64,000 bases of DNA from an uncultured Gammaproteobacteria bacterium. GTDB taxonomy: Bacteria > Pseudomonadota > Gammaproteobacteria > UBA9214. Made by a program: the position numbers and the translations under genes. How positions within the stretch are numbered: the first letter of the stretch is position 1; each line of letters opens with the position of its first letter. The notes beneath the pieces were generated by a model, which made no database searches, had not been told where the DNA came from, and was given only the letters and a program-made list of their open reading frames with translations. The stretch spans positions 160,001 through 224,000 of the forward strand of contig CAVVHS010000006.1 of the NCBI GenBank assembly GCA_963748215.1. The letters run 5' to 3'. Below, piece after piece: positions 9,394 to 21,347 of the stretch.

Positions 9394-11208
9394 ATGCCGG
9401 AAATGCACAGCCGCAGTCAGCTTGCACGGGCATGGCGTCAGACCGGGATGCTGCTGCTCGCTGCTGCAATCCTGCTGGCGGCAGCGCCGTCATGGGCTGC
9501 GGACGAGGCGGCGCTGGAAATGAACTGGGGCGGCATGGCCATGAACCTGCTGGGGGGGCTGGCGCTGTTCCTGTTCGGCATGGAACAGATGGCCGATGCC
9601 CTCAAGGCCGTCGCCGGCGAGCGCATGAAGATCGTGCTGGCCCGGTTGACCACCAACCGTTTCATGGGCGCGCTGACCGGCGCCTTCGTCACCGCGATCA
9701 TCCAGTCCTCGTCGGTCACCACGGTGCTGGTCGTCGGTTTCATCTCGGCCGGACTGATGTCCATGGCCCAGTCCATCGGCGTCATCATGGGCGCCAACAT
9801 CGGCACCACCATCACCGCCCAGATCGTTGCCTTCAAGGTTACCAAGGCCGCGCTGCTGATGGTTGCCGCCGGTTTCGCCATGCTGTTCTTCTCCTCCAAT
9901 GACAAGATCAAGCACTACGGCGGCATGCTCATGGGGCTGGGTCTGATCTTTTTCGGCATGAGCGTGATGAGCGACGCCATGTACCCGTTGCGCGCCTACC
10001 AGCCGTTCCTGGACCTGATGACGCAGATGGCGAACCCGTTGATCGGCATCCTGGTCGCGGCCCTGTTCACCGCCCTGGTGCAGTCGTCCTCGGCCACCAC
10101 GGGTATCGTCATCGTCATGGCCAGCCAGGGCTTCATCACGCTGCCCGCGGGTATCGCGCTGGCCTTCGGTGCCAACATCGGCACCTGCGTGACGGCGATG
10201 CTGGCCGCGATCGGCAAGCCCCGGGAAGCGGTCCGCGCCGCTGTCGTGCACGTACTGTTCAATGTCTTCGGCGTGCTGGCCTGGGTCGGCCTGATCGGCT
10301 GGCTGGCGGAGTTCGTCACCGCCATCTCGCCGGCCCATCCGGAACTGTCGGGAACCGCGCGCCTGGCCGCCGACACGCCGCGGCAGATCGCCAATGCGCA
10401 CACCTTCTTCAATATCGCGAATACCTTGCTGTTCATCGGTTTCACCGGCCAGCTGGCGCGGCTGGTCGAATGGCTGGTTCCGGACAAGCCGCTCGTGGAG
10501 GGGGCTGTTGCCGAGCCGCGCTACCTCGATGATTCGCTGTTCGAGACGCCATCGATCGCGCTCGACCGGGTGCGCCTGGAGATCGGTCATATCGGGGACC
10601 GGGTGCGGGACATGCTGGACCAGATCATGCCGGCGATCCTCGGCGGTGACCGTTCCGCGCTGCGCGACGTGGCCAGGATCGATGATGATGTCGATGTCCT
10701 GCACGGACATGTCGTCACCTACCTGGGGAAGATCAGTCGCAAGGAACTGACCGAAGACCAGACGCATCAATTCGTCAACCTGATGGCGGCTGCCAATGAC
10801 CTGGAGAACATCGGGGACGTGGTAGAAACCGACCTCGTACACCTGGGTAACCAGCGCATCAGTGAAGGGGTTTCGATCAGCCCGTCGACGCGGCAGGTGC
10901 TGACCGAGGTGCACAAGGCGGTTACGGCGGCGACGGACCTGGCAATCAGGGCCGTTGCCGAAAACAACCCGGATGCGGCACGCGAGGTGATCGGCATGAA
11001 AGAGGCTATCGGTGAGCTGGCGCAATCCGCGGCCATGCACCAGATCAAGCGCCTGGTCGCTGAAGAGCCGAACCGGCTCGCGGCCTACACTATCGAGATG
11101 GACATTATCGAGAAACTGAAGCGCACCTACTACTTCGCCAAGCGCATGGCGAAAACCCTCGACGTAGCGGTCGAGGAGCGCGCGGAGGAGGCGGAGGCGG
11201 CCGCCTGA
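9394..11208 (+). CDS. Na+/Pi cotransporter family protein with C-terminal PhoU domain
   Basis: GGLALFLFGM, QSSSVTT, GANIGTT, second QSSSATT/GANIGTC repeat; C-terminal DLENIGD PhoU-like bundle. Confidence 0.92.
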   Translation: MPEMHSRSQLARAWRQTGMLLLAAAILLAAAPSWAADEAALEMNWGGMAMNLLGGLALFLFGMEQMADALKAVAGERMKIVLARLTTNRFMGALTGAFVTAIIQSSSVTTVLVVGFISAGLMSMAQSIGVIMGANIGTTITAQIVAFKVTKAALLMVAAGFAMLFFSSNDKIKHYGGMLMGLGLIFFGMSVMSDAMYPLRAYQPFLDLMTQMANPLIGILVAALFTALVQSSSATTGIVIVMASQGFITLPAGIALAFGANIGTCVTAMLAAIGKPREAVRAAVVHVLFNVFGVLAWVGLIGWLAEFVTAISPAHPELSGTARLAADTPRQIANAHTFFNIANTLLFIGFTGQLARLVEWLVPDKPLVEGAVAEPRYLDDSLFETPSIALDRVRLEIGHIGDRVRDMLDQIMPAILGGDRSALRDVARIDDDVDVLHGHVVTYLGKISRKELTEDQTHQFVNLMAAANDLENIGDVVETDLVHLGNQRISEGVSISPSTRQVLTEVHKAVTAATDLAIRAVAENNPDAAREVIGMKEAIGELAQSAAMHQIKRLVAEEPNRLAAYTIEMDIIEKLKRTYYFAKRMAKTLDVAVEERAEEAEAAA

Positions 11209-11211
11209 ACG

Positions 11212-12492
11212 TCATGTGCCGGATTGCGGCGGCGGGTTATCCGCCGGCGCGGCAGTCTCGTCCCCGGCGATCCGCCTGATGCTGACCTGCTCGATGCGGC
11301 GCGGGGTGGCCGAACGTATCGTGACCTCGAGTCCATCGATCATGAACCTGTCGTCCGGGGCCGGAATGTTCTCGGAATGGGTCAATATCCAGAGATTCAC
11401 CCGGTCTGTCGGTTTTCCCGGCAGCTCGATCCCGAAATAGTCCTCGACCACCCGCAACTCGGTGGCACCCTGTACCAGCAGTTCGTTTACCGAGACGCCG
11501 GTTGTGCCGGCGGGCCCCTCGTCGCTTTCGTCGTAGATCTCTCCGACCAGTTCCTCCATCAGGTCTTCCAGTGTGACCAGCCCCCTGACCACGCCATGCT
11601 CGTCGACGACGATGGCGAAAATCTGTTTGCTGCGCCGGAATTTCGCGAACAGCTCGTCGATCGGCTCATACTGTTGTGCGAACAGCGGCTCATGAGCCAG
11701 GTCGCGCAGCGAGGCATCGAGCAGGCCCTTGTCGATCGCGCCCAGCAGATCGCGCAGGTGCAATACCTTGTACAGCCGGTCCCGGTGCTGTTCGTAGATA
11801 GGAATACGGGAATAGGGCGCCTCCACCACTGCCGACAGCACATCACGAACGGTCTGGCTGCCTTCCAGCGAAAAGACCGCGGTAAGCGGCGTCATCACGT
11901 CACGTACCTTCAGGTCGTTGAAAGCGAATACGCGCTCGATCAGCTCGCGTTCGCTGTGTTCGATGGTGCCTTCCCGTTCCCCGTGCTGCAGCATGCTGAT
12001 GAATTCCGATTCGGTCACGATCGGATCCCCTTCGTGGCTGCTCATGCCGTGGATCCAGGTTGTGAACCTGCCAAAAATCCATACCAGCGGGTAGATCAGG
12101 CGCATGAATCCCAGCAGTGGCACGGCGATAAACAGTGAAACCCGCTCGGAGTAGCGCGTGGCGAGGCTTTTCGGCGTGATCTCGCCGAATACCAGCACCA
12201 GCACGGTCAGTACCCCGACCGCCACGCCGGGGCCGGCGCTGCCGAGCCAGCGCGTGGCCACCACGGTAGCCAGTACGGAGGCTGCGATGTTGACGAGATT
12301 GTTACCGATCAGGATAGTGGTCAGCATGCGAGAGGGGTCTTTTTTCAACCGGTACAGCGCAGCCGCGCCGCGCCGGCCTTCACGGACCAGGCCCTCGACC
12401 CGCCCGATGGACAGGCTCACCAGGGCCGTTTCGGAACCCGAAAAGACGCCCGACAGGATCAGCAGTAATAACAGGGCGAGCGGTTCAGCCAT
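11212..12492 (-). CDS. CNNM/HlyC/CorC family (DUF21-CBS-CorC) Mg2+ transporter-like protein
   Basis: FSGSETA, ILIGNNLVNI, FGEITPKS, YSRIP, VVDEHG..GLVTLEDLMEELVGEIYDE. Confidence 0.9.
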   Translation of the reverse strand: MAEPLALLLLLILSGVFSGSETALVSLSIGRVEGLVREGRRGAAALYRLKKDPSRMLTTILIGNNLVNIAASVLATVVATRWLGSAGPGVAVGVLTVLVLVFGEITPKSLATRYSERVSLFIAVPLLGFMRLIYPLVWIFGRFTTWIHGMSSHEGDPIVTESEFISMLQHGEREGTIEHSERELIERVFAFNDLKVRDVMTPLTAVFSLEGSQTVRDVLSAVVEAPYSRIPIYEQHRDRLYKVLHLRDLLGAIDKGLLDASLRDLAHEPLFAQQYEPIDELFAKFRRSKQIFAIVVDEHGVVRGLVTLEDLMEELVGEIYDESDEGPAGTTGVSVNELLVQGATELRVVEDYFGIELPGKPTDRVNLWILTHSENIPAPDDRFMIDGLEVTIRSATPRRIEQVSIRRIAGDETAAPADNPPPQSGT

Positions 12493-12719: not shown

Positions 12720-13592
12720 ATGCTTCACAAATCCTGTTTCATCGCACTGCTGGCCGGTACCTTGCTGGTTGGGACGGCCGCACAGGCACGCACCGAAATC
12801 CAGAACAAGGGCTCGGATACGCTGGTCAATGTGGCCCAGGCGTGGGCGGAAGCCTACCAGAAGGTCGACCCCGACGTGGCGATTGCGGTATCCGGCGGCG
12901 GTTCCGGAACGGGCATCGCCGCCCTCATCAACGGCACGGTGGATATTGCCAATGCCAGCCGCCAGATGAAAGACAAGGAGATGAAACTGGCCGAAGAGCA
13001 TGGCCACAAGCCGGTGGAGTTTATCGTGGGCTACGACGCACTGGCCGTATTCATCAACAATGCCAACCCGATCACCAAACTGTCCATCGCGCAGCTGCAA
13101 GAGATCTTCGGTCGTGGTGGCAAGACGACGAAGTGGACGGATATCGGTGTCACCGTGCCGGGCTGCAAGGACCAGGAGATTATCGTGGTCAGCCGGCAAA
13201 ACAATTCCGGCACCTATGCCTACTTCAAGGATGCCGTACTGGGCAAGAAGGGGAAATACCGCCAGGGCACCCTGGACATGCACGGTTCCAAGGACGTTGT
13301 CGACCTGGTCGAGAAAACGCCCTGTGCGATCGGCTACAGTGGCCTGGCCTACGCCACCGAGCACCTGAAGATGGTCTGCATAGAAAGCGGTGAGGATGGC
13401 AGCTGTGTGAATCCGAGCGTGGAAACGGCCAGTGACAACACCTACCCCATTGCACGGCCGCTGTTCATGTATACCAGTGGTGAACCGGCCGGTGCGGTCA
13501 AGACCTATCTTGACTGGATATTCAGTGACGAGGGTCAGTGCATCATCAGCAACAAGGGCTATGCGCCGGTGAAGAAGGTCACTTGCCAGTAA
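12720..13592 (+). CDS. pstS: Phosphate ABC transporter substrate-binding protein
   Basis: Signal peptide; KGSDT, GGGSGTGI, DIANASR, SRQNNSGT, YPIARPLFMY. Confidence 0.92.
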   Translation: MLHKSCFIALLAGTLLVGTAAQARTEIQNKGSDTLVNVAQAWAEAYQKVDPDVAIAVSGGGSGTGIAALINGTVDIANASRQMKDKEMKLAEEHGHKPVEFIVGYDALAVFINNANPITKLSIAQLQEIFGRGGKTTKWTDIGVTVPGCKDQEIIVVSRQNNSGTYAYFKDAVLGKKGKYRQGTLDMHGSKDVVDLVEKTPCAIGYSGLAYATEHLKMVCIESGEDGSCVNPSVETASDNTYPIARPLFMYTSGEPAGAVKTYLDWIFSDEGQCIISNKGYAPVKKVTCQ

Positions 13593-13710: not shown

Positions 13711-14793
13711 ATGAGGCATTACGAGGAGCGGCTGGAGCATGACCTGAAGCGGATTCGCGATCGCATCGCGGACATGGCCGGCAGTGTCGAGAAGGCTGTC
13801 GCGAACGCCATTCATGCTTTCCAGACCGGCGAAAGCGAACTGGCCGCCGCGACGATTCTCGGCGATCACCCGATCAACCGCGCCATGCGCGAAATCGACC
13901 GCCTGTGTCATGCCTTTATCGCCGTGCATCTGCCGAGCGGTGCTCACCTGCGGCTGCTGTCTTCGGCGATCCGCGCCAATATCGCACTGGAGCGCATCGG
14001 CGACTACGCGGTCACGATTGCACGCGCATCCGGACAGCTGTCCGCGCCGCCGGGCGGCTTGATGGGACGCGAACTGGAACGTATCGCGACCGAGGCGACG
14101 GTGATGCTCGAGCAGTCCATCAAGGCCTTCAATACCCTGAACGCGGAACAGGCCAGGACAACGATGGTGCTGGAAAAGGAAATGGAGTATGACCTGGAAT
14201 CGGTATACTCGGAGCTGACCGCGAACCCGGATCGGGAGAAGGTCAAGGAATTGCTGGTGGTGTTCGTGGTGCTCACGCACCTGAAACGTGTGGCCGACCA
14301 GGCAAAAAACCTGTGTGAGGAAACCGTGTTCGCCGTCACCGGCGAGGGCAAGGTCCCCAAGGTCTATCACATCCTGTTTCTCGACGAGGACAACAGTTGC
14401 CTGGCCAAAATGGCCGAACTCGTCGCGCGCAAGACCTTCCCGGAAAGCGGCAGCTACAGCAGTTGTGGCAGAAACCCCGCTGCTGCACTCGATCCGAACA
14501 TGGTGCGGTTCCTCGAAAGCCGCGGTTTTGACCTGAGCGACGCAAGCCCCGCGCCGCTGGATCTGACGCACGCGGAACTGGTCGACAAGCATGTCATCGT
14601 GAGCCTGGAGGGGCCGGTCAGAAGCTATATACAGCAGCTTCCGTTCCACACCACGGCCCTGGAATGGAAGACCAGGCCTGTGCCAACCGGCAGTTTCGAG
14701 CAGCAGCCGGAGCCGTGGGAGGCGCTGTACCGGGATGTCGCGACCCGTATACGCGACCTGATTGAAATCCTGCGCGGGCCGGATGCGCCCTGA
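13711..14793 (+). CDS. phoU: PhoU fused to a C-terminal LMW-PTP/ArsC-like domain with a degenerate active site
   Basis: PhoU motifs EID..C, LERIGDYA, LKRVADQA.N; C-terminus HILFLDEDNSCLAKMAE...S.G...W resembles LMW-PTP lacking the nucleophile Cys and Arg. Confidence 0.8.
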   Translation: MRHYEERLEHDLKRIRDRIADMAGSVEKAVANAIHAFQTGESELAAATILGDHPINRAMREIDRLCHAFIAVHLPSGAHLRLLSSAIRANIALERIGDYAVTIARASGQLSAPPGGLMGRELERIATEATVMLEQSIKAFNTLNAEQARTTMVLEKEMEYDLESVYSELTANPDREKVKELLVVFVVLTHLKRVADQAKNLCEETVFAVTGEGKVPKVYHILFLDEDNSCLAKMAELVARKTFPESGSYSSCGRNPAAALDPNMVRFLESRGFDLSDASPAPLDLTHAELVDKHVIVSLEGPVRSYIQQLPFHTTALEWKTRPVPTGSFEQQPEPWEALYRDVATRIRDLIEILRGPDAP

Positions 14794-14809
14794 GAGGGGA
14801 CTGCTCGTG

Positions 14810-15724
14810 ATGGAGACACGCGCGACAGCCAGCTTTGATCGTCGGAACCTCGACTGGTATATCGACAAGTTTGTCCAGGTTGTGGTCTTCATCAGCGGCA
14901 TTTCCGCCATCATCTTCATTATCGGTATCTTTGCCTTCGTCACCAAGGAAGGCATCGGTTTCATACTGGATACCATGGATCCCCGGGAATTTTTCCTGTC
15001 CCAGTACTGGGAGCCCAGTGACGAGGATGCGCCGGAATACGGCATCCTGGCGCTGGTGGCCGGAACCGCCAGTGTTACCGGGCTGGCGCTGCTGGTGGCC
15101 ATTCCGTTTTCGCTCGGCGCGGCCATCTTTATCGGTGAATTCGCATCCGGCAAGACCCGGGAATTTCTGAAAATACTGGTCGAACTGCTGGCCGCGATCC
15201 CGTCGGTGGTGTGGGGCTTCATCGGGCTCACCATCATGAACCCGTTGATCATCAAGACGTTCGATGTGCCGGTCGGTTTGACTGTGCTCAATGCCGGTAT
15301 CATTCTCGGGCTCATGGTGGCGCCGATCATGACCTCGATTGCCGAGGATGCACTCAAGGCGGTGCCCGACCGCTACCGCGAGGCGGCGGAGGCGATGGGC
15401 GCGACCCGCTGGCAGGTCATCTTCAAGGTTGTGCTGCCGGCAGCGAAGAACGGTCTGCTCGGCGCTATCCTGCTGGGCATCGGCCGGGGCTTCGGCGAAA
15501 CCATGGCGGTGCTGATGACAACCGGCCACTCGGTCAACCTGCCGACCAGCGTGTTTGACTCGGTGCGTGCACTGACGGCGACCATTGCCGCCGAGCTCGG
15601 CGAGACAGCGGTCGGTTCCGAGCATTACCAGGTGTTGTTCACGATCGGTATCCTGCTGTTCGTCATTACCTTCGTTATCAACCTCACGGCTGACCTGGTC
15701 GTGCGTGGTATACGCAAGGGATAG
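14810..15724 (+). CDS. pstC: Phosphate ABC transporter permease PstC
   Basis: ELLAAIPSVVWG, EDALKAVP..REAA.AMGATRWQ, GRGFGETMAV. Confidence 0.93.
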   Translation: METRATASFDRRNLDWYIDKFVQVVVFISGISAIIFIIGIFAFVTKEGIGFILDTMDPREFFLSQYWEPSDEDAPEYGILALVAGTASVTGLALLVAIPFSLGAAIFIGEFASGKTREFLKILVELLAAIPSVVWGFIGLTIMNPLIIKTFDVPVGLTVLNAGIILGLMVAPIMTSIAEDALKAVPDRYREAAEAMGATRWQVIFKVVLPAAKNGLLGAILLGIGRGFGETMAVLMTTGHSVNLPTSVFDSVRALTATIAAELGETAVGSEHYQVLFTIGILLFVITFVINLTADLVVRGIRKG

Positions 15725-15729
15725 CCATC

Positions 15730-16599
15730 ATGTTTACCGAAACAGAACTCAACGTCCGTAATAAACGCATCGAACGACTCTTTCGTATCCTGTTCCTGCT
15801 CATGACCGGCCTGCTGATACTGCCGGTACTTATCATCCTGGCCACCCTTGTCTACAAGGGAGGCCCGGTTATCTCCATCGATTTTCTGTTCACCTCGCCG
15901 ACCGACGGCATGACCGCAGGCGGCATCTTTCCGGCGCTGCTGGGCACGGTCTGGCTGGTTGCGGTGGCGCTGCTCGTATCGGTACCGATCGGCGTTGCGG
16001 CCGCTATCTACCTGAACGAATATGCGACCGACAACTGGTTTACCCGCATCATCAACCTCGCCATTATCAACCTGGCAGGCGTGCCCTCCATCGTGCATGC
16101 GCTGTTTGGCGTCGGCGCCTTCGTCATCTTTTTCGGTTTCGGCACCAGCATTCTGGCCGCCAGCCTGACGCTGGCGATCATGACCCTGCCGGTTGTCATC
16201 GTGGCGACCCGTGAATCCCTGCGTTCGGTGCCGATGGCATTTCGCGAGGCCTGCTGGAACATGGGTGCGACCCGCTGGCAGACCATCCGGCGCATCGTGC
16301 TGCCGAATGCCGTCAGCGGTATACTCACCGGCATAATCCTCGAGGTATCGCGTACCGCGGGCGAGACCGCGCCGATCATGTTTACCGGTGCCGTATTTTT
16401 CACCCCCTTCCTGCCACAGAGTGTCTTTGACCAGACCATGGCGCTGTCGCTGCATCTGTTCGTGGTGGCGACCCAGGTGCCGGGCGTACCGGAAAACCTG
16501 CCCTATGGCGTGGCACTGGTGCTGATTTCCATGGTGCTGCTGATGAACAGTCTTTCCATCGGTTTTCGCATGTACCTGCGTGGACGCAAGAAATGGTAA
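15730..16599 (+). CDS. pstA: Phosphate ABC transporter permease PstA
   Basis: AIYLNEY, LAGVPSIV, GATRWQTI, SRTAGETAPI. Confidence 0.93.
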   Translation: MFTETELNVRNKRIERLFRILFLLMTGLLILPVLIILATLVYKGGPVISIDFLFTSPTDGMTAGGIFPALLGTVWLVAVALLVSVPIGVAAAIYLNEYATDNWFTRIINLAIINLAGVPSIVHALFGVGAFVIFFGFGTSILAASLTLAIMTLPVVIVATRESLRSVPMAFREACWNMGATRWQTIRRIVLPNAVSGILTGIILEVSRTAGETAPIMFTGAVFFTPFLPQSVFDQTMALSLHLFVVATQVPGVPENLPYGVALVLISMVLLMNSLSIGFRMYLRGRKKW

Positions 16600-17417
16600 C
16601 CGCAGGCACTCGCGCAACGCCGGCCGCAGGCGGGGCCGAACGGATGGCAGGGGAACCCGTCGCAAGCCCGACGCTCGAGGTCTCGAACCTGAGCATCCGC
16701 TACGGTAATCATGTAGCGCTGCGCGATATCAGTCTCGAGATCCAGAAGAACGAAATCTTCGGCATTATCGGTCCGGCAAATGCAGGCAAGACCTCGTTTC
16801 TGAAGTCGATCAATCGCATGGACATGTTCGATGGCGCCATGCATGTGGACGGGACGGTTCGTTTCAGCGGGGTATCAATCAATCACCTCAGGAATATCTA
16901 TGCCCTGCGCTCGCGTATCGGGGTGGTGTTTCCCTTGCCGGTGGGGCTGCCCCTGACAGTCTACGAAAACGTTGCCCTGGCACCGCGCCTGGCCGGTAAC
17001 AGCAACAAGGCCGACCTCGATGTCATCGTCGAACGCTGCCTGCAGCGCGCCGCGTTGTGGGACGAGGTCAAGGACCGGCTCGATTCGCTCGGCAGCCTGC
17101 TGTCAGGCGGGCAGCAGCAGCGGCTGACCATCGCGCGGGCGCTGTCGCAGGAACCTGAACTGCTGATGCTGGATGAATTCTCGATCGCAGTCGATCCGGT
17201 AACGACCATGCGCATCGAGGATGTGCTCAAGGAACTGAAGCACGAGATGACCATCATACTGGTCACCAACCTGGTGCAGCAGGCGCGCCGGCTGGCCGAC
17301 CGGACCGCGTTTTTCCTGGACGGGGAGTGCGTGGAGATCGGTGTCACGGAGGACCTGTTCGCCGGACAGGTCCAGGACAAGCGTACCCGCGACTACCTGG
17401 AAGGCAGGTTCGGCTGA
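16593..17417 (+). CDS. pstB: Phosphate ABC ATPase copy 1 (intact signature; degenerate Q-loop and H-switch)
   Basis: GPANAGKT, VFPLP, LSGGQQQRL, LMLDEF, VTNLVQQA, TRDYLEGRFG; start uncertain. Confidence 0.85.
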   Translation: MVTAGTRATPAAGGAERMAGEPVASPTLEVSNLSIRYGNHVALRDISLEIQKNEIFGIIGPANAGKTSFLKSINRMDMFDGAMHVDGTVRFSGVSINHLRNIYALRSRIGVVFPLPVGLPLTVYENVALAPRLAGNSNKADLDVIVERCLQRAALWDEVKDRLDSLGSLLSGGQQQRLTIARALSQEPELLMLDEFSIAVDPVTTMRIEDVLKELKHEMTIILVTNLVQQARRLADRTAFFLDGECVEIGVTEDLFAGQVQDKRTRDYLEGRFG

Positions 17418-18196
17418 TGAATGATGCAGCAGGGCAGTACGCCATACAGACACGCAAGCTCAATCTCTGGTACGGGACCTTCCAGGCCCTGTTTGATGTG
17501 GACCTCTCTATCCGGAGCGGCCGGATCACGTCCCTGATCGGGCCATCGGGCTGCGGGAAATCGACCTTCCTGCGCAGCATCAACCGCATCAACGAGCGTC
17601 TCGGTTATGCCCGCATTGAGGGCGCCATCGATGTGCTGGGCCACAACGTCTATGCGCCCGACGTCGAGCTGGTGCAGGTACGCAAGCAGGTCGGCATGGT
17701 GTTCCAGCGTCCCAACCCGCTGCCGATCTCGATCCGGGAGAATGTGCTGTTCGGACACACCCTGCATTCCGGCCAGGGCAAGGGATCGCGCAGTGAGCGC
17801 GATGACATCGTGGAATCGGCACTGAGTCAGGTATTGCTCTGGGACCAGGTCAAGGACCGGCTTGACGACAGGGCCATCGGGCTGTCACTCGAGCAGCAGC
17901 AGAAGCTGTGTATAGCACGCCTGCTGCCGGTCAAGCCCGCCGTATTGCTGATGGATGAACCCTGTTCGGCGCTGGATCCCAAGGGTACCGAGGCAGTGGA
18001 AGAACTGATCTGGGAATTGCGCGGGCAATACACGATCCTGATCGTGACCCACAATATGGCCCAGGCAAGGCGTGCCAGCGAAGAGTGCATCTTCATGCTG
18101 ATGGGCAAGGTCATCGAGCATACCGCGACCGATAAACTGTTCGTGACGCCGAAGTCCAGCGAGACTGCGGATTATATCGAGGGTCGTTACGGCTGA
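17417..18196 (+). CDS. pstB: Phosphate ABC ATPase copy 2 (intact Walker A/B, Q, H; degenerate signature)
   Basis: GPSGCGKST, VFQRPNP, LSLEQQQKL, LMDEPCSALDP, VTHNMAQA, TADYIEGRYG; ATG overlaps upstream TGA. Confidence 0.9.
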   Translation: MNDAAGQYAIQTRKLNLWYGTFQALFDVDLSIRSGRITSLIGPSGCGKSTFLRSINRINERLGYARIEGAIDVLGHNVYAPDVELVQVRKQVGMVFQRPNPLPISIRENVLFGHTLHSGQGKGSRSERDDIVESALSQVLLWDQVKDRLDDRAIGLSLEQQQKLCIARLLPVKPAVLLMDEPCSALDPKGTEAVEELIWELRGQYTILIVTHNMAQARRASEECIFMLMGKVIEHTATDKLFVTPKSSETADYIEGRYG

Positions 18197-18223: not shown

Positions 18224-18811
18224 TCAGGTCAGCCTGTGTTTGTCCTCGTGCCCGATGCTGTCGCGGGGCCACCATTCGGCAGTTGCCGCATCAGCCTCGT
18301 TACCGCCGCCGTCGCCGGCCGGCGCCTTGACGATGGTGACCGGCACGCGGCAGTGCTGCATCACCTCGGTCGATACCGATCCCGCGGCCATGCGCGCCAG
18401 CCCGGTACGCCCATGCGTACCCATCACGATCAATCCGGCCTGTTCACGCACGGCGATTTCCTGGATGCGTGCCGCGGGCAGTCCGCTGACCAGCAGCAGC
18501 TGCGGTTCGATCGACCCGCCGGCATCGTGGCAATCGCCGCATACACCGGCGACGAATTCCCTGAGCATGTCGCGGGCGATGTCCTCGACCGGCCGCAGCG
18601 TCCCCGGCGCACCGTTACTGCGGTAGAACCCCGCTTCGTTGCCCGCTTCGTGGACCACATGCAGTACCAGCATCGGTGCATTGACGCAGCGGATGAGGTT
18701 TGTCGCGAACTGCAGGGCGGCGTGCGAGCAGGATGAAAAATCCACCGGTACCAGGACCGGGTGTGCCGTCGGCGCGGCCGTAGATGATGTGTGTGCTTGC
18801 ATGTCAGTCAC
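18224..18811 (-). CDS. Universal stress protein
   Basis: VLVPVDFSSCS...IVMGTHGRTGLARMAAGSV...PVTIVK; paralogue of 8726..9205. Confidence 0.88.
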   Translation of the reverse strand: MTDMQAHTSSTAAPTAHPVLVPVDFSSCSHAALQFATNLIRCVNAPMLVLHVVHEAGNEAGFYRSNGAPGTLRPVEDIARDMLREFVAGVCGDCHDAGGSIEPQLLLVSGLPAARIQEIAVREQAGLIVMGTHGRTGLARMAAGSVSTEVMQHCRVPVTIVKAPAGDGGGNEADAATAEWWPRDSIGHEDKHRLT

Positions 18812-18888
18812 TCCATGCAGTCTGGCTGTCGGGCCGCTGGCCTGTCAGGAAGGCGCAGCGGATGATAGCGGTACTCTAGCAGCGCAGT

Positions 18889-18917
18889 GTTACGGGAGTG
18901 TTACAGCTGTGTGACAG
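18889..18917 (-). promoter_or_regulatory. Pho-box-like site (three half-sites, 11-bp period) upstream of USP
   Basis: Minus strand CTGTCAC-ACAG-CTGTAAC-ACTC-CCGTAAC followed by TAGAGT (-10-like). Confidence 0.6.
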
Positions 18918-19025
18918 GTCCGGCGGGGCAGGGATACGGTGTGCGTTCAGCTCAGCGGGGCGATGCACAGCGTGCACGCTGCGGAATGCAGGTGCGGCAA
19001 GATGCGTTCCACGCACCGGGCAGTG

Positions 19026-20576
19026 CTATTTCTTTTCCAGCCTTTGCTCCAGCCGGTCGGCGACGTTCCTGATCACCTTGATGCGCGCATAGCGCTTGTC
19101 GTTGCCCTCGACCAGGGTCCAGGGCGCGTTGATGGTGCTGGTGTGCTGCACCATGTCATGTACCGCGTGTTCGTAGTCTTCCCATTTTTCGCGGTTGCGC
19201 CAGTCTTCATCGGTCAGCTTCCAGCGCTTGTAGGGGATCTTCTCGCGTGCCTCGAAACGGGCCAGCTGCTCGTCCTTGGTGATGTGCACCCAGTATTTCA
19301 CGAGCACGATGCCATGCTCGATGAGCTGGTCCTCGAAATCGTTGATCTCGGCATAGGCACGCCGCCAGGTATTTTCATCGGCATAGCCTTCCACCCGCTC
19401 GACCAGTACGCGCCCGTACCAGCTGCGGTCATAGATCGTGAGTTGTCCGGCACTGGACAGGCGCCGCCAGAAGCGCCACAGGTAGTGGTGGGCGCGCTCC
19501 TCGTCGGTCGGTGCGGCGAACGGCAGGACCCGGTAATTGCGCGCATCCAGCGGCCCCGTGATGCGACGGATGCCACCGCCCTTGCCGGCGGCGTCCGGAC
19601 CTTCGAATACCAGGATGGTAGAGACTTTTTTCTCCAGCGCCGCCCGGCACAGCTTGCTGAGCCGGGCCTGCTGTTCCTTGAGCTGGCGCTGGTAGTCCTT
19701 TTTGCCCAGATGCTTCGACATGTTCAGCGTGCTCAGTACCGTCAGCACCGGCGCTGTCACAACCGCGGGCTGTGGTGCATCCGGTTCGACCGCGTCGGTG
19801 GTCTCTTGCGCATTGTGCGTGTCGACGGACTTGATCCGGTTGCGTGCCTCGCGCTCCCAGCGCACCTCGTCGAGCCGCTTGCGCACGGCGTCGCGGATGA
19901 TTGTGCCGACAGTCAGGCTGCGGTAATTGGCGTCCTCGCCCTCGACGATGGTCCAGGGCGCGCGCCCGGTGCTGGTACGCATGATGGTCCGTTCCGCGGC
20001 CTCGATGAAACGCTCGTACATGTCCCAGTGTTTCCAGTCGCGTTCCGTCACGCGCCATTTGGTCAGGGGATCCTTTTCGAGATTTTTCAGGCGCCGCTTC
20101 TGGGCGCTCTTGCTGAGGTGCATCCAGAACTTGAGCAGGACGACGCCGTCCTCGGTCAGCGCATTTTCGAACGCCACGATACGGTCCAGGCTGTCCACGA
20201 ACTGGGGCAGGTCCAGCTTGCCGTAGACGCGGTCCAGCACCGGCCGCGAGTACCACGAACTGAGAAACAGGCCGATGCGGCCCTTGGCGGGAAGATCACG
20301 CCAGAATCGCCAGTATTCAGGTCGATCGCTCTCTTCCTGGGTGGGTTCGTTGTAGGCGCGCGTGACGAGCCAGCGCGGGTCCATCCATTCATTGAGCAGG
20401 TTGACGGTCTGGCCCTTGCCGCCACCGTCCACGCCGGCGAACACGATAATGACCGGAAACTCCGCGAATTCACGCAGCTCCTGCTGCAGTTCCAGCAGTT
20501 CCTGGCGCAGCACGGGTTCGCGTTGCTTGTATTCCTCTTTCGATACGGTGGAACCGACTTCGGCTGCCTCGAACAT
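19026..20576 (-). CDS. pap: Polyphosphate:AMP phosphotransferase (two-domain PPK2)
   Basis: MFEAAE start; two PPK2 domains (AGVDGGGKG; FEGPDAAGKGG, HHYLWRFW, DRSWYGRVLVERVEG, WKLTDEDWRNR). Confidence 0.92.
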   Translation of the reverse strand: MFEAAEVGSTVSKEEYKQREPVLRQELLELQQELREFAEFPVIIVFAGVDGGGKGQTVNLLNEWMDPRWLVTRAYNEPTQEESDRPEYWRFWRDLPAKGRIGLFLSSWYSRPVLDRVYGKLDLPQFVDSLDRIVAFENALTEDGVVLLKFWMHLSKSAQKRRLKNLEKDPLTKWRVTERDWKHWDMYERFIEAAERTIMRTSTGRAPWTIVEGEDANYRSLTVGTIIRDAVRKRLDEVRWEREARNRIKSVDTHNAQETTDAVEPDAPQPAVVTAPVLTVLSTLNMSKHLGKKDYQRQLKEQQARLSKLCRAALEKKVSTILVFEGPDAAGKGGGIRRITGPLDARNYRVLPFAAPTDEERAHHYLWRFWRRLSSAGQLTIYDRSWYGRVLVERVEGYADENTWRRAYAEINDFEDQLIEHGIVLVKYWVHITKDEQLARFEAREKIPYKRWKLTDEDWRNREKWEDYEHAVHDMVQHTSTINAPWTLVEGNDKRYARIKVIRNVADRLEQRLEKK

Positions 20577-20678: not shown

Positions 20679-21347
20679 TCAGTCCGCCGCGACCGGTTCC
20701 GTGCAGTGCACTGAATCATGACGCGGGTTGTTGACCAGCCGGCTGACCGGCCAGGCCTCCAGCGCGGTGGCGGTCCAGGGTGCGAGCATGGCCAGGAGTT
20801 GTGCTTGGTCCGTGTTGGCCGGGTCCAGCCACGCGGCGTACTGCGCCGGGGCCAGGATCGCCGGCATGCGCGCATGGATCGGCGCCATCAGCCGGTTGGC
20901 CGCGGTCACGATGAGGGTGCAGGTCTCCAGTGCCTGGTCGTCATGCTGCCAGTGCTCCCAGAGGCCGGCAAAGGCAAACAGGCCGCCGTGCTGCATATGG
21001 ATGTAGTGGGGTATCTTGTTGTCGTCCTGCTGCTGCCACTCGTAGAAGCCGGTGGCCGGGATCAGGCAGCGCCGCTGCCGGAAGGCGGCGCGGTAGGCAG
21101 GCTTCTCGGCGACCGTCTCGGCACGGGCATTGATGGTGCTGTATTTCGTTTTCGGTTCCTTCGACCAGGCCGGTACCAGGCCCCAGCGCAGCAGCACGCA
21201 CTCGCGCCCGCCCGCGCCCTGGCGCACCACGGCGATATCCTGTGACGGCGCGATATTGTAGCGCGGTGCAAGGGCCGGCGCGTCCGCCAGGCCGAAATGA
21301 CTGGCCAGCGTGTCCGGCAGTGCATCCAGCGAGAAGCGGCCACACAC
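20679..21347 (-). CDS. SOS response-associated peptidase (SRAP/YedK family)
   Basis: MCGRF N-terminus, YNIAPSQ, WGLVPAW, INARAET, RCLIPATGFYEW, IHARMP. Confidence 0.92.
   Translation of the reverse strand: MCGRFSLDALPDTLASHFGLADAPALAPRYNIAPSQDIAVVRQGAGGRECVLLRWGLVPAWSKEPKTKYSTINARAETVAEKPAYRAAFRQRRCLIPATGFYEWQQQDDNKIPHYIHMQHGGLFAFAGLWEHWQHDDQALETCTLIVTAANRLMAPIHARMPAILAPAQYAAWLDPANTDQAQLLAMLAPWTATALEAWPVSRLVNNPRHDSVHCTEPVAAD

Follow-up and report, generated by a model that had tools for sequence, protein, structure and literature searches.

How does a phosphate importer operate when its operon encodes two ATPase subunits, neither of which carries the full catalytic motif set of PstB? This question is raised by a 64,000-nucleotide stretch of DNA (hereafter the window; positions 160,001 to 224,000 of contig CAVVHS010000006.1, assembly GCA_963748215.1) from an uncultured gammaproteobacterium. 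Two overlapping genes on its forward strand, pstB-1 (16593-17417) and pstB-2 (17417-18196), encode the upstream and downstream nucleotide-binding domains (NBDs) of a Pst system. We consider it probable (roughly 80%) that the two proteins assemble as an obligate heterodimer whose ATP sites differ, one being consensus and the other degenerate, and that this ATPase powers the only Pst importer of the organism. The case is carried by the motifs of the two subunits and how well these are conserved, by the joint inheritance of both genes and by the fact that no other PstB was found in the genome.

The predicted proteins are 37% identical (95/257) and deviate from canonical PstB in complementary ways. 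PstB-1 retains the LSGGQ signature and a Walker B of LMLDEF, and lacks both the Q-loop glutamine (VFPLP, Gln to Pro) and the H-switch histidine (VTNL, His to Asn); its Walker A reads GPANAGKT and its D-loop IAVD. PstB-2 has Walker A GPSGCGKS, Q-loop VFQRP, Walker B LLMDEP, D-loop SALD and H-switch VTHN, thereby keeping all elements of its own Walker side, and has lost both signature glycines (LSLEQ). A preliminary description of this DNA, made from the sequence alone, had listed the same kept and lost motifs for both subunits, and the translations and motif tables bear these lists out. Its statement that Walker A of PstB-1 is altered holds in part: GPANAGKT had been read correctly, but the motif still matches GxxxxGK[ST]. 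In an alignment of 31 sequences of the PstB-1 kind (upstream type), the Walker A Lys66, the Walker B Asp194-Glu195 and the LSGGQQQ stretch (31/31) are invariant, and the A-loop Tyr37 is at least 90% conserved.

Because the ATP sites of ATP-binding cassette (ABC) proteins are composite, a heterodimer of these subunits would hold two unlike sites. Such sharing is stated for Escherichia coli PstB, in which ATP is bound by Walker A and B of one monomer and LSGGQ of the other (PMC12976172, in the portion of the article available), in agreement with the premise of the preliminary description. We infer heterodimer formation, catalytic asymmetry and nucleotide occupancy along the following lines. The consensus site would combine Walker A and B, the Q-loop Gln and the H-switch His of PstB-2 with LSGGQ of PstB-1, and the degenerate site would combine Walker A and B of PstB-1, devoid of Q-loop Gln and H-switch His, with LSLEQ of PstB-2. 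A homodimer of either PstB-1 or PstB-2 would possess two defective sites; the mixed dimer alone would restore one complete catalytic site. Hydrolysis of ATP at the consensus site would drive the conformational cycle of PstC and PstA, and one active site was sufficient in the histidine importer (PMC3971661, in the accessible part of this review). The degenerate site probably binds ATP, as suggested by the conserved A-loop Tyr, Walker A Lys and Walker B Asp-Glu, with slow or no hydrolysis, and might serve as a latch or regulatory element in the manner of heterodimeric ABC exporters. In HlyB, MalK and HisP, replacing the H-switch His stops hydrolysis while ATP can still bind, and the degenerate site of yeast Pdr5 has a similar signature, LNVEQ.

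Structure prediction yielded a complex with this geometry. For PstB-1 and PstB-2 with two ATP and two Mg, the interface score ipSAE was 0.73, 0.73 and 0.72 in three runs, compared with 0.00 for the best of three controls; NBD dimers are among solved folds, so this score may reflect memory and shows likeness, not binding. The mark applied to predicted complexes, which this pair passes, is reached by 58 of 80 solved complexes and by 2 of 110 mismatched pairs. Contact agreement between runs was at least 88%, and partner pLDDT was at least 86. In the predicted head-to-tail interface, PstB-1 residues 170-174 (LSGGQ) lie on PstB-2 residues 42-49 (Walker A) and 97-98, and the contacts also include residues 61-67, 114-115 and 226 of PstB-1 and residues 155 and 157-160 of PstB-2, thereby reproducing the composite arrangement. 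The D-loop of PstB-1 (198-204) is placed against Walker A and the D-loop of PstB-2, which would assign the altered D-loop to the consensus site and the dimer core. Together, the motif tables and the predicted interface show that, the D-loop excepted, the substitutions of the two different NBDs meet in a single composite site. The preliminary description had placed most of the substitutions in a single composite site, and this stands for the Q-loop, H-switch and signature but not for the D-loop IAVD, which is at the consensus site in the predicted dimer.

The pair is well conserved within the genus. Orthologues of PstB-1 were found in 14 of 24 other species (77-85% identical over full-length matches), and PstB-2 adjoins PstB-1 in 13 of these 14, the contig ending first in the other. 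All six PstB-1 motifs are letter-identical in 13 of the congener orthologues, and the remaining one (locus L019) lacks the Walker A stretch only. In L019 (genome G008, 1284-2040), the PstB-1 orthologue is in two pieces in different frames, which cover residues 23-95 and 96-274. Of 14 PstB-2 rows, the one from the window included, 4 have the signature LSLEQ and 10 have LSLEE. Two congeners had only a canonical-like match, and eight, which are 75-92% complete, had no match at E ≤ 1e-30. Median pairwise ratios of nonsynonymous to synonymous substitution rates (dN/dS), calculated within the genus from a codon-threaded alignment, were 0.089 for pstB-1 and 0.068 for pstB-2 (13 rows and 78 pairs each; approximate values, as dS is near saturation). 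Both genes are thus under strong purifying selection. The 119 nearest database clusters (75-100% identical) all carry the patterns of Q-loop, signature, Walker B, D-loop and H-switch (119/119), and 117/119 carry that of Walker A.

A search of the source genome (95.28% complete) with the TIGR00972 profile found no PstB besides the pair. At E ≤ 1e-40 there were four matches, namely the pair and two other ABC ATPases (146 and 140 bits), none of them over the cut-off, whereas matches exceeding it occur in 13 of 14 control genomes. Two other genomes (G427 and G428), those of Ca. Multivorans and a delta-proteobacterium, were checked likewise and yielded no PstB outside the pair. An Accumulibacter metagenome-assembled genome (MAG) encodes a canonical PstB (386 bits) besides the pair.

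To gauge how far this arrangement extends, a profile of upstream-type subunits was searched against 400 scored genomes of the same class, in which four genomes flagged as unpublished (G318, G308, G156 and G063) were counted only in the denominator and among the canonical-level matches. Nine of the 400 genomes had an upstream-type match of at least 423 bits, with the next best match at 344 bits. Two of the nine are the genome of the window and one congener; the other seven are spread over five other families, and each of them (7/7) has an adjacent partner and reciprocal motifs. Reciprocal adjacent pairs also occurred in 10 of the best 80 of at least 600 stretches from named genomes, which are a sample and not a census. 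Seven of these pairs are of the type seen in the window, from MAGs labelled Accumulibacter, Chromatiaceae, Pseudomonadota, Ca. Multivorans (Acidobacteriota), Poribacteria and, in two cases, delta-proteobacteria. Three more distant pairs come from WOR-1, Planctomycetales and Anaerolineae MAGs. In the WOR-1 and Planctomycetales pairs, the upstream subunit has Ala in the Q-loop and Asn in the H-switch, and the partner signature is LSLEA or LSLEQ. The Anaerolineae pair (L052, 5046-6635) is milder, with an upstream subunit that has Thr in the Q-loop and keeps the His, and a partner with LSLGQ; its upstream subunit branches at the base of the upstream-type clade, and the pair may represent an intermediate stage of degeneration. 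Among the same 80 loci, a Desantisbacteria contig stops after an upstream-type gene, and neither copy of the tandem PstBs in Bacillus subtilis, Ammoniphilus and Akkermansia departs from the canonical motifs. Wherever both genes of a pair are on one contig they are adjacent, and the subunit deficient in Q-loop Gln and H-switch His is always upstream. The best 150 matches in a representative library of 1.84 billion proteins comprised 11 proteins of upstream type, 9 of downstream type, 98 canonical, 26 partial and 6 other.

The alignment of homologue pairs that the preliminary description had proposed as a check therefore found the reciprocal pattern to be conserved across the genus and to recur in several phyla. 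The operon as a whole is shared with the Accumulibacter, Chromatiaceae and Pseudomonadota MAGs, in which PstS, PstC and PstA are 69-86% identical and synteny is kept. Given this shared operon and the patchy distribution of the pair, the comparison points to horizontal spread of a complete operon unit. Two further loci carry unusual copies. A Bacillota MAG (L082, 1894-2655) has a lone upstream-type PstB with a Walker A Lys to Ile and a Walker B Glu to Arg substitution, and no second pstB was found between pstA and phoU on its 6.9-kb contig. In the Poribacteria MAG (L030, 7477-8274), the pair is followed about 1 kb downstream by a third, very divergent PstB-like gene (GPTNSGKST, LSIGQ, ATNK), which sits beside a second phoU.

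The two subunit types also separate in phylogeny. In a quick maximum-likelihood tree of 76 rows, for which one in three of the single-copy canonical loci was kept, the upstream-type rows fell in one clade (22 of 23) and the downstream-type rows in another (16 of 18), each with an SH-aLRT of 99. Both clades show a mirrored order, with Poribacteria and one delta-proteobacterium, then Multivorans and the other delta-proteobacterium, then the proteobacterial group. Exceptions were the third Poribacteria copy (L030), on a very long branch, and the LSLGQ partners of Anaerolineae type, whose part of the tree is poorly resolved. The tandem PstBs of Firmicutes do not group with the degenerate pair. A single origin of the two subunit types followed by their co-evolution is likely from this tree. 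Motif tables, conservation and mirrored clades thus provide comparative support for the earlier proposal of one canonical and one degenerate site, which would operate as outlined above. On physical pairing of the two NBDs the mirrored clades bear indirectly.

Three other readings of the pair have to be weighed against an obligate heterodimer. PstB-1 and PstB-2 might form separate homodimers for different conditions, or PstB-2 homodimers might carry out transport with PstB-1 in an accessory or signalling role towards PhoU/PhoR. Such a division would be in keeping with a PstB-2 that keeps all catalytic motifs of its own Walker side, with the fused PhoU encoded in the same operon and with genetics in Enterococcus faecalis, where tandem PstBs have unequal roles and overexpressed PstB2 substitutes (PMC12096839, in the part of the study available). 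We nevertheless regard it as unlikely. In a PstB-2 homodimer each site would contain LSLEQ or LSLEE, and in a PstB-1 homodimer neither site would have the Gln or the His; the two genes overlap, are adjacent wherever both are on one contig and have mirrored trees; and an invariant LSGGQQQ (31/31) is hard to explain in PstB-1 unless it completes the active site of the partner. Less probable still is that both sites are catalytically competent and the substitutions tune kinetics, with two ATP spent per cycle as in canonical Pst. The Walker A Lys, Walker B Asp-Glu and A-loop Tyr conserved in PstB-1 are compatible with this, and the Anaerolineae pair, in which His is kept and the partner changed only to LSLGQ, suggests that milder forms exist. 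However, three catalytic elements of one composite site (Q-loop Gln, H-switch His and the two signature glycines) have changed together across phyla, and in HlyB, MalK and HisP hydrolysis is lost or much reduced when the His or a signature Gly is replaced, which speaks against two working sites. The least credible reading is that of a decaying duplicate with one copy becoming a pseudogene, as might be supposed from the sub-cut-off TIGR00972 scores of both proteins and from the split PstB-1 in one congener. Substitutions that are not conserved in orthologues were what the preliminary description would have taken as decay; the motifs are instead invariant (five of them in 119/119 close homologues), dN/dS is 0.07-0.09, the spread reaches several phyla and no PstB besides the pair was found in the window genome, G427 or G428. 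Motif conservation and dN/dS rule this reading out.

The obligate heterodimer is itself subject to several reservations, which count against it. On a separate contig, 7 of the 14 congeners with the pair have a further, third match of PstB-like kind (41-46% identical), and in those seven the pair is not the only option. The split PstB-1 of L019 reflects either a frameshift or an assembly error, and the starred branches of the quick tree are less reliable with long rows present. The sites are also not cleanly one perfect and one dead in the predicted dimer, where the D-loop change falls at the consensus site, and the PstB-1 site may keep some turnover because its catalytic Glu and Walker A Lys are retained. 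In E. faecalis, which has two canonical PstBs, PstB2 can take the place of PstB1 when present in excess (PMC12096839, as far as its available text goes), and tandem PstBs therefore need not be obligate partners. The literature search found no biochemical or genetic test of the pair.

The degenerate pocket might be a purpose-built latch or sensor instead of a passive leftover, a suggestion that we put forward only tentatively and think rather doubtful. It is prompted by a correlation between the two subunits: in every pair in hand in which the downstream signature has Glu at position 4, the upstream Walker A has an amide, Asn or Gln, at its own position 4, and the only pair with Gly at signature position 4 (L052) has Ala at that Walker A position and keeps the His. 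This co-occurrence of amide and Glu suggests a direct Asn/Gln-Glu contact across the pocket, which could hold the dimer half-closed with or without nucleotide. Were this so, each phosphate would cost one ATP, and the pocket could signal the cell's ATP or inorganic phosphate (Pi) status to the fused PhoU-phosphatase-like protein of the operon.

The genes directly upstream of the ATPase pair identify the system as Pst, as PstS, PhoU, PstC and PstA each score over their NCBIfam cut-offs. All are on the forward strand: pstS for the periplasmic phosphate-binding protein (12720-13592; TIGR02136, 249.2 bits against a cut-off of 206.6; Pfam PBP_like_2), phoU with an extra C-terminal domain (13711-14793; TIGR02135, 131.6 bits against 130.25, residues 7-212), and the permease genes pstC (14762-15724; TIGR02138, 283.4 bits against 196.45) and pstA (15730-16599; TIGR00974, 264.1 bits against 193.45). 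For both ATPases the top-scoring family is TIGR00972 (PstB), yet both remain under its equivalog cut-off of 343.2 bits (PstB-1, 274.3; PstB-2, 322.3). Both pass the gathering threshold of 25 bits for the ABC ATPase domain PF00005, with 81.4 bits for PstB-1 and 93.9 for PstB-2. Owing to the sub-cut-off scores, annotation pipelines may name the pair only generically, as one NCBI record does.

Candidate starts of pstB-1 are ATG 16593, which overlaps the pstA stop, and ATG 16644; residues 1-27 are weakly conserved, and the database also holds a 257-residue call of the protein. The longest open reading frame (ORF) of pstB-2 opens at GTG 17327, inside pstB-1. Its true start is more likely ATG 17417, given that this codon overlaps the pstB-1 stop (TGATG) and that orthologue alignments begin there; the two genes are translationally coupled through the TGATG overlap. 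In metatranscriptome data (Logan contigs from four sediment libraries), parts of pstS through pstB-2 are covered by sequences 90-99% alike, hence from relatives; such contigs cannot show a transcript, and uncovered parts of the operon carry no information. Two pieces (16490-16893 and 17349-17505) span the pstA/pstB-1 and pstB-1/pstB-2 junctions, a weak hint of expression as the libraries can contain DNA.

The extra domain of PhoU comprises about 145 C-terminal residues and has a weak match to LMWPc (PF01451; 20.8 bits against a cut-off of 23.2), the low-molecular-weight phosphotyrosine phosphatase/ArsC-like family. Judged by eye, the Cys-X5-Arg phosphatase loop appears to be replaced, which would make the domain a possible pseudo-phosphatase. 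In this proteobacterial group the fusion belongs to the operon; loci L025, L026, L027 and L029 share it, and it was not found in L028, L030 or L031.

The operon sits within a phosphate island (9394-12492 and 18224-20576). On one side are a gene for a sodium/phosphate (Na/Pi) cotransporter with two PhoU domains (9394-11208, forward) and one for a CNNM/CBS/CorC protein (11212-12492, reverse), and on the other are genes for a universal stress protein (18224-18811, reverse) and a two-domain PPK2 polyphosphate kinase (19026-20576, reverse). None of these four turned up in L025-L031 at distances of up to 5 kb from the pair, which indicates that the island is local and outside the conserved unit. PPK2 adjacency was considered as a part of the system and ruled out, as PPK2, the universal stress protein and the Na/Pi transporter have no matches near the pair in those loci. 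An ORF farther along (20679-21347, reverse) has a translation that looks like an SOS-response-associated peptidase (SRAP/YedK).

How many ATP a binding-protein-dependent importer uses per cycle, and whether its sites act alternately or jointly, is an old open question that has been approached mainly with engineered single-site mutants. The pair described here is a natural type I importer that appears to have run for long on one consensus site in many phyla, and it must work, being the only Pst system in some organisms. It provides a naturally occurring system in which to examine ATP stoichiometry and what phosphate uptake costs in energy, the asymmetry of sites in importers, and communication between PstB and PhoU.

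Among known systems, the closest in overall composition is E. coli PstSCAB (PDB 9k3x, 9k3y and 9k3s; PMC12976172, in the portion available), which has the same parts (pstS, pstC, pstA and pstB, together with phoU), the same NBD fold and composite ATP sites; E. coli PstB is also the best solved-structure match to PstB-1 (E = 2.1e-60). The E. coli protein is a homodimer with two consensus sites, whereas the window encodes two proteins 37% identical, under the equivalog cut-off and with one consensus site, and its phoU lies between pstS and pstC and has an extra domain. Two adjacent pstB genes in one pst operon are likewise found in B. subtilis (PstBA/PstBB; PMC11466899) and E. faecalis (PstB1/PstB2; PMC12096839), and for B. 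subtilis a heteromeric PstBA-PstBB-PstC-PstA-PstS assembly has been modelled (PMC11466899), each of these sources being available in part. In the accessible part of its text, the 2025 study in E. faecalis claims that tandem pstB paralogues had not been compared earlier (PMC12096839). Unlike the pair in the window, these Firmicute tandem copies keep all motifs (L090, L046 and E. faecalis). Importer ATPases with one degenerate site have been reported for B. subtilis, namely RbsA and NupO (PMC11466899, in the part available); these sugar and nucleoside importers have two NBDs in one polypeptide, and their degenerate site lacks the Walker A Lys that the window pair retains.

The preliminary description had called the pattern familiar from exporters and unusual for Pst. 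In agreement with this, no PstB pair with a degenerate site is described in the full-text literature searched, which holds few subscription journals, and combinations of consensus and degenerate sites are frequent in exporters (PMC3971661, in the accessible part of this review). The design is well known in drug exporters and apparently has not been described for phosphate importers. Heterodimeric ABC exporters such as TM287/288, BmrCD, PatAB, TAP1/2 and CFTR arrive at one consensus and one degenerate site through complementary NBD substitutions, as the window pair does. They are type IV systems with NBDs fused to transmembrane domains, in contrast to the free NBD subunits of this type I, binding-protein-dependent importer, and TM287/288 has a changed Walker B Glu that is retained in both PstB-1 and PstB-2.

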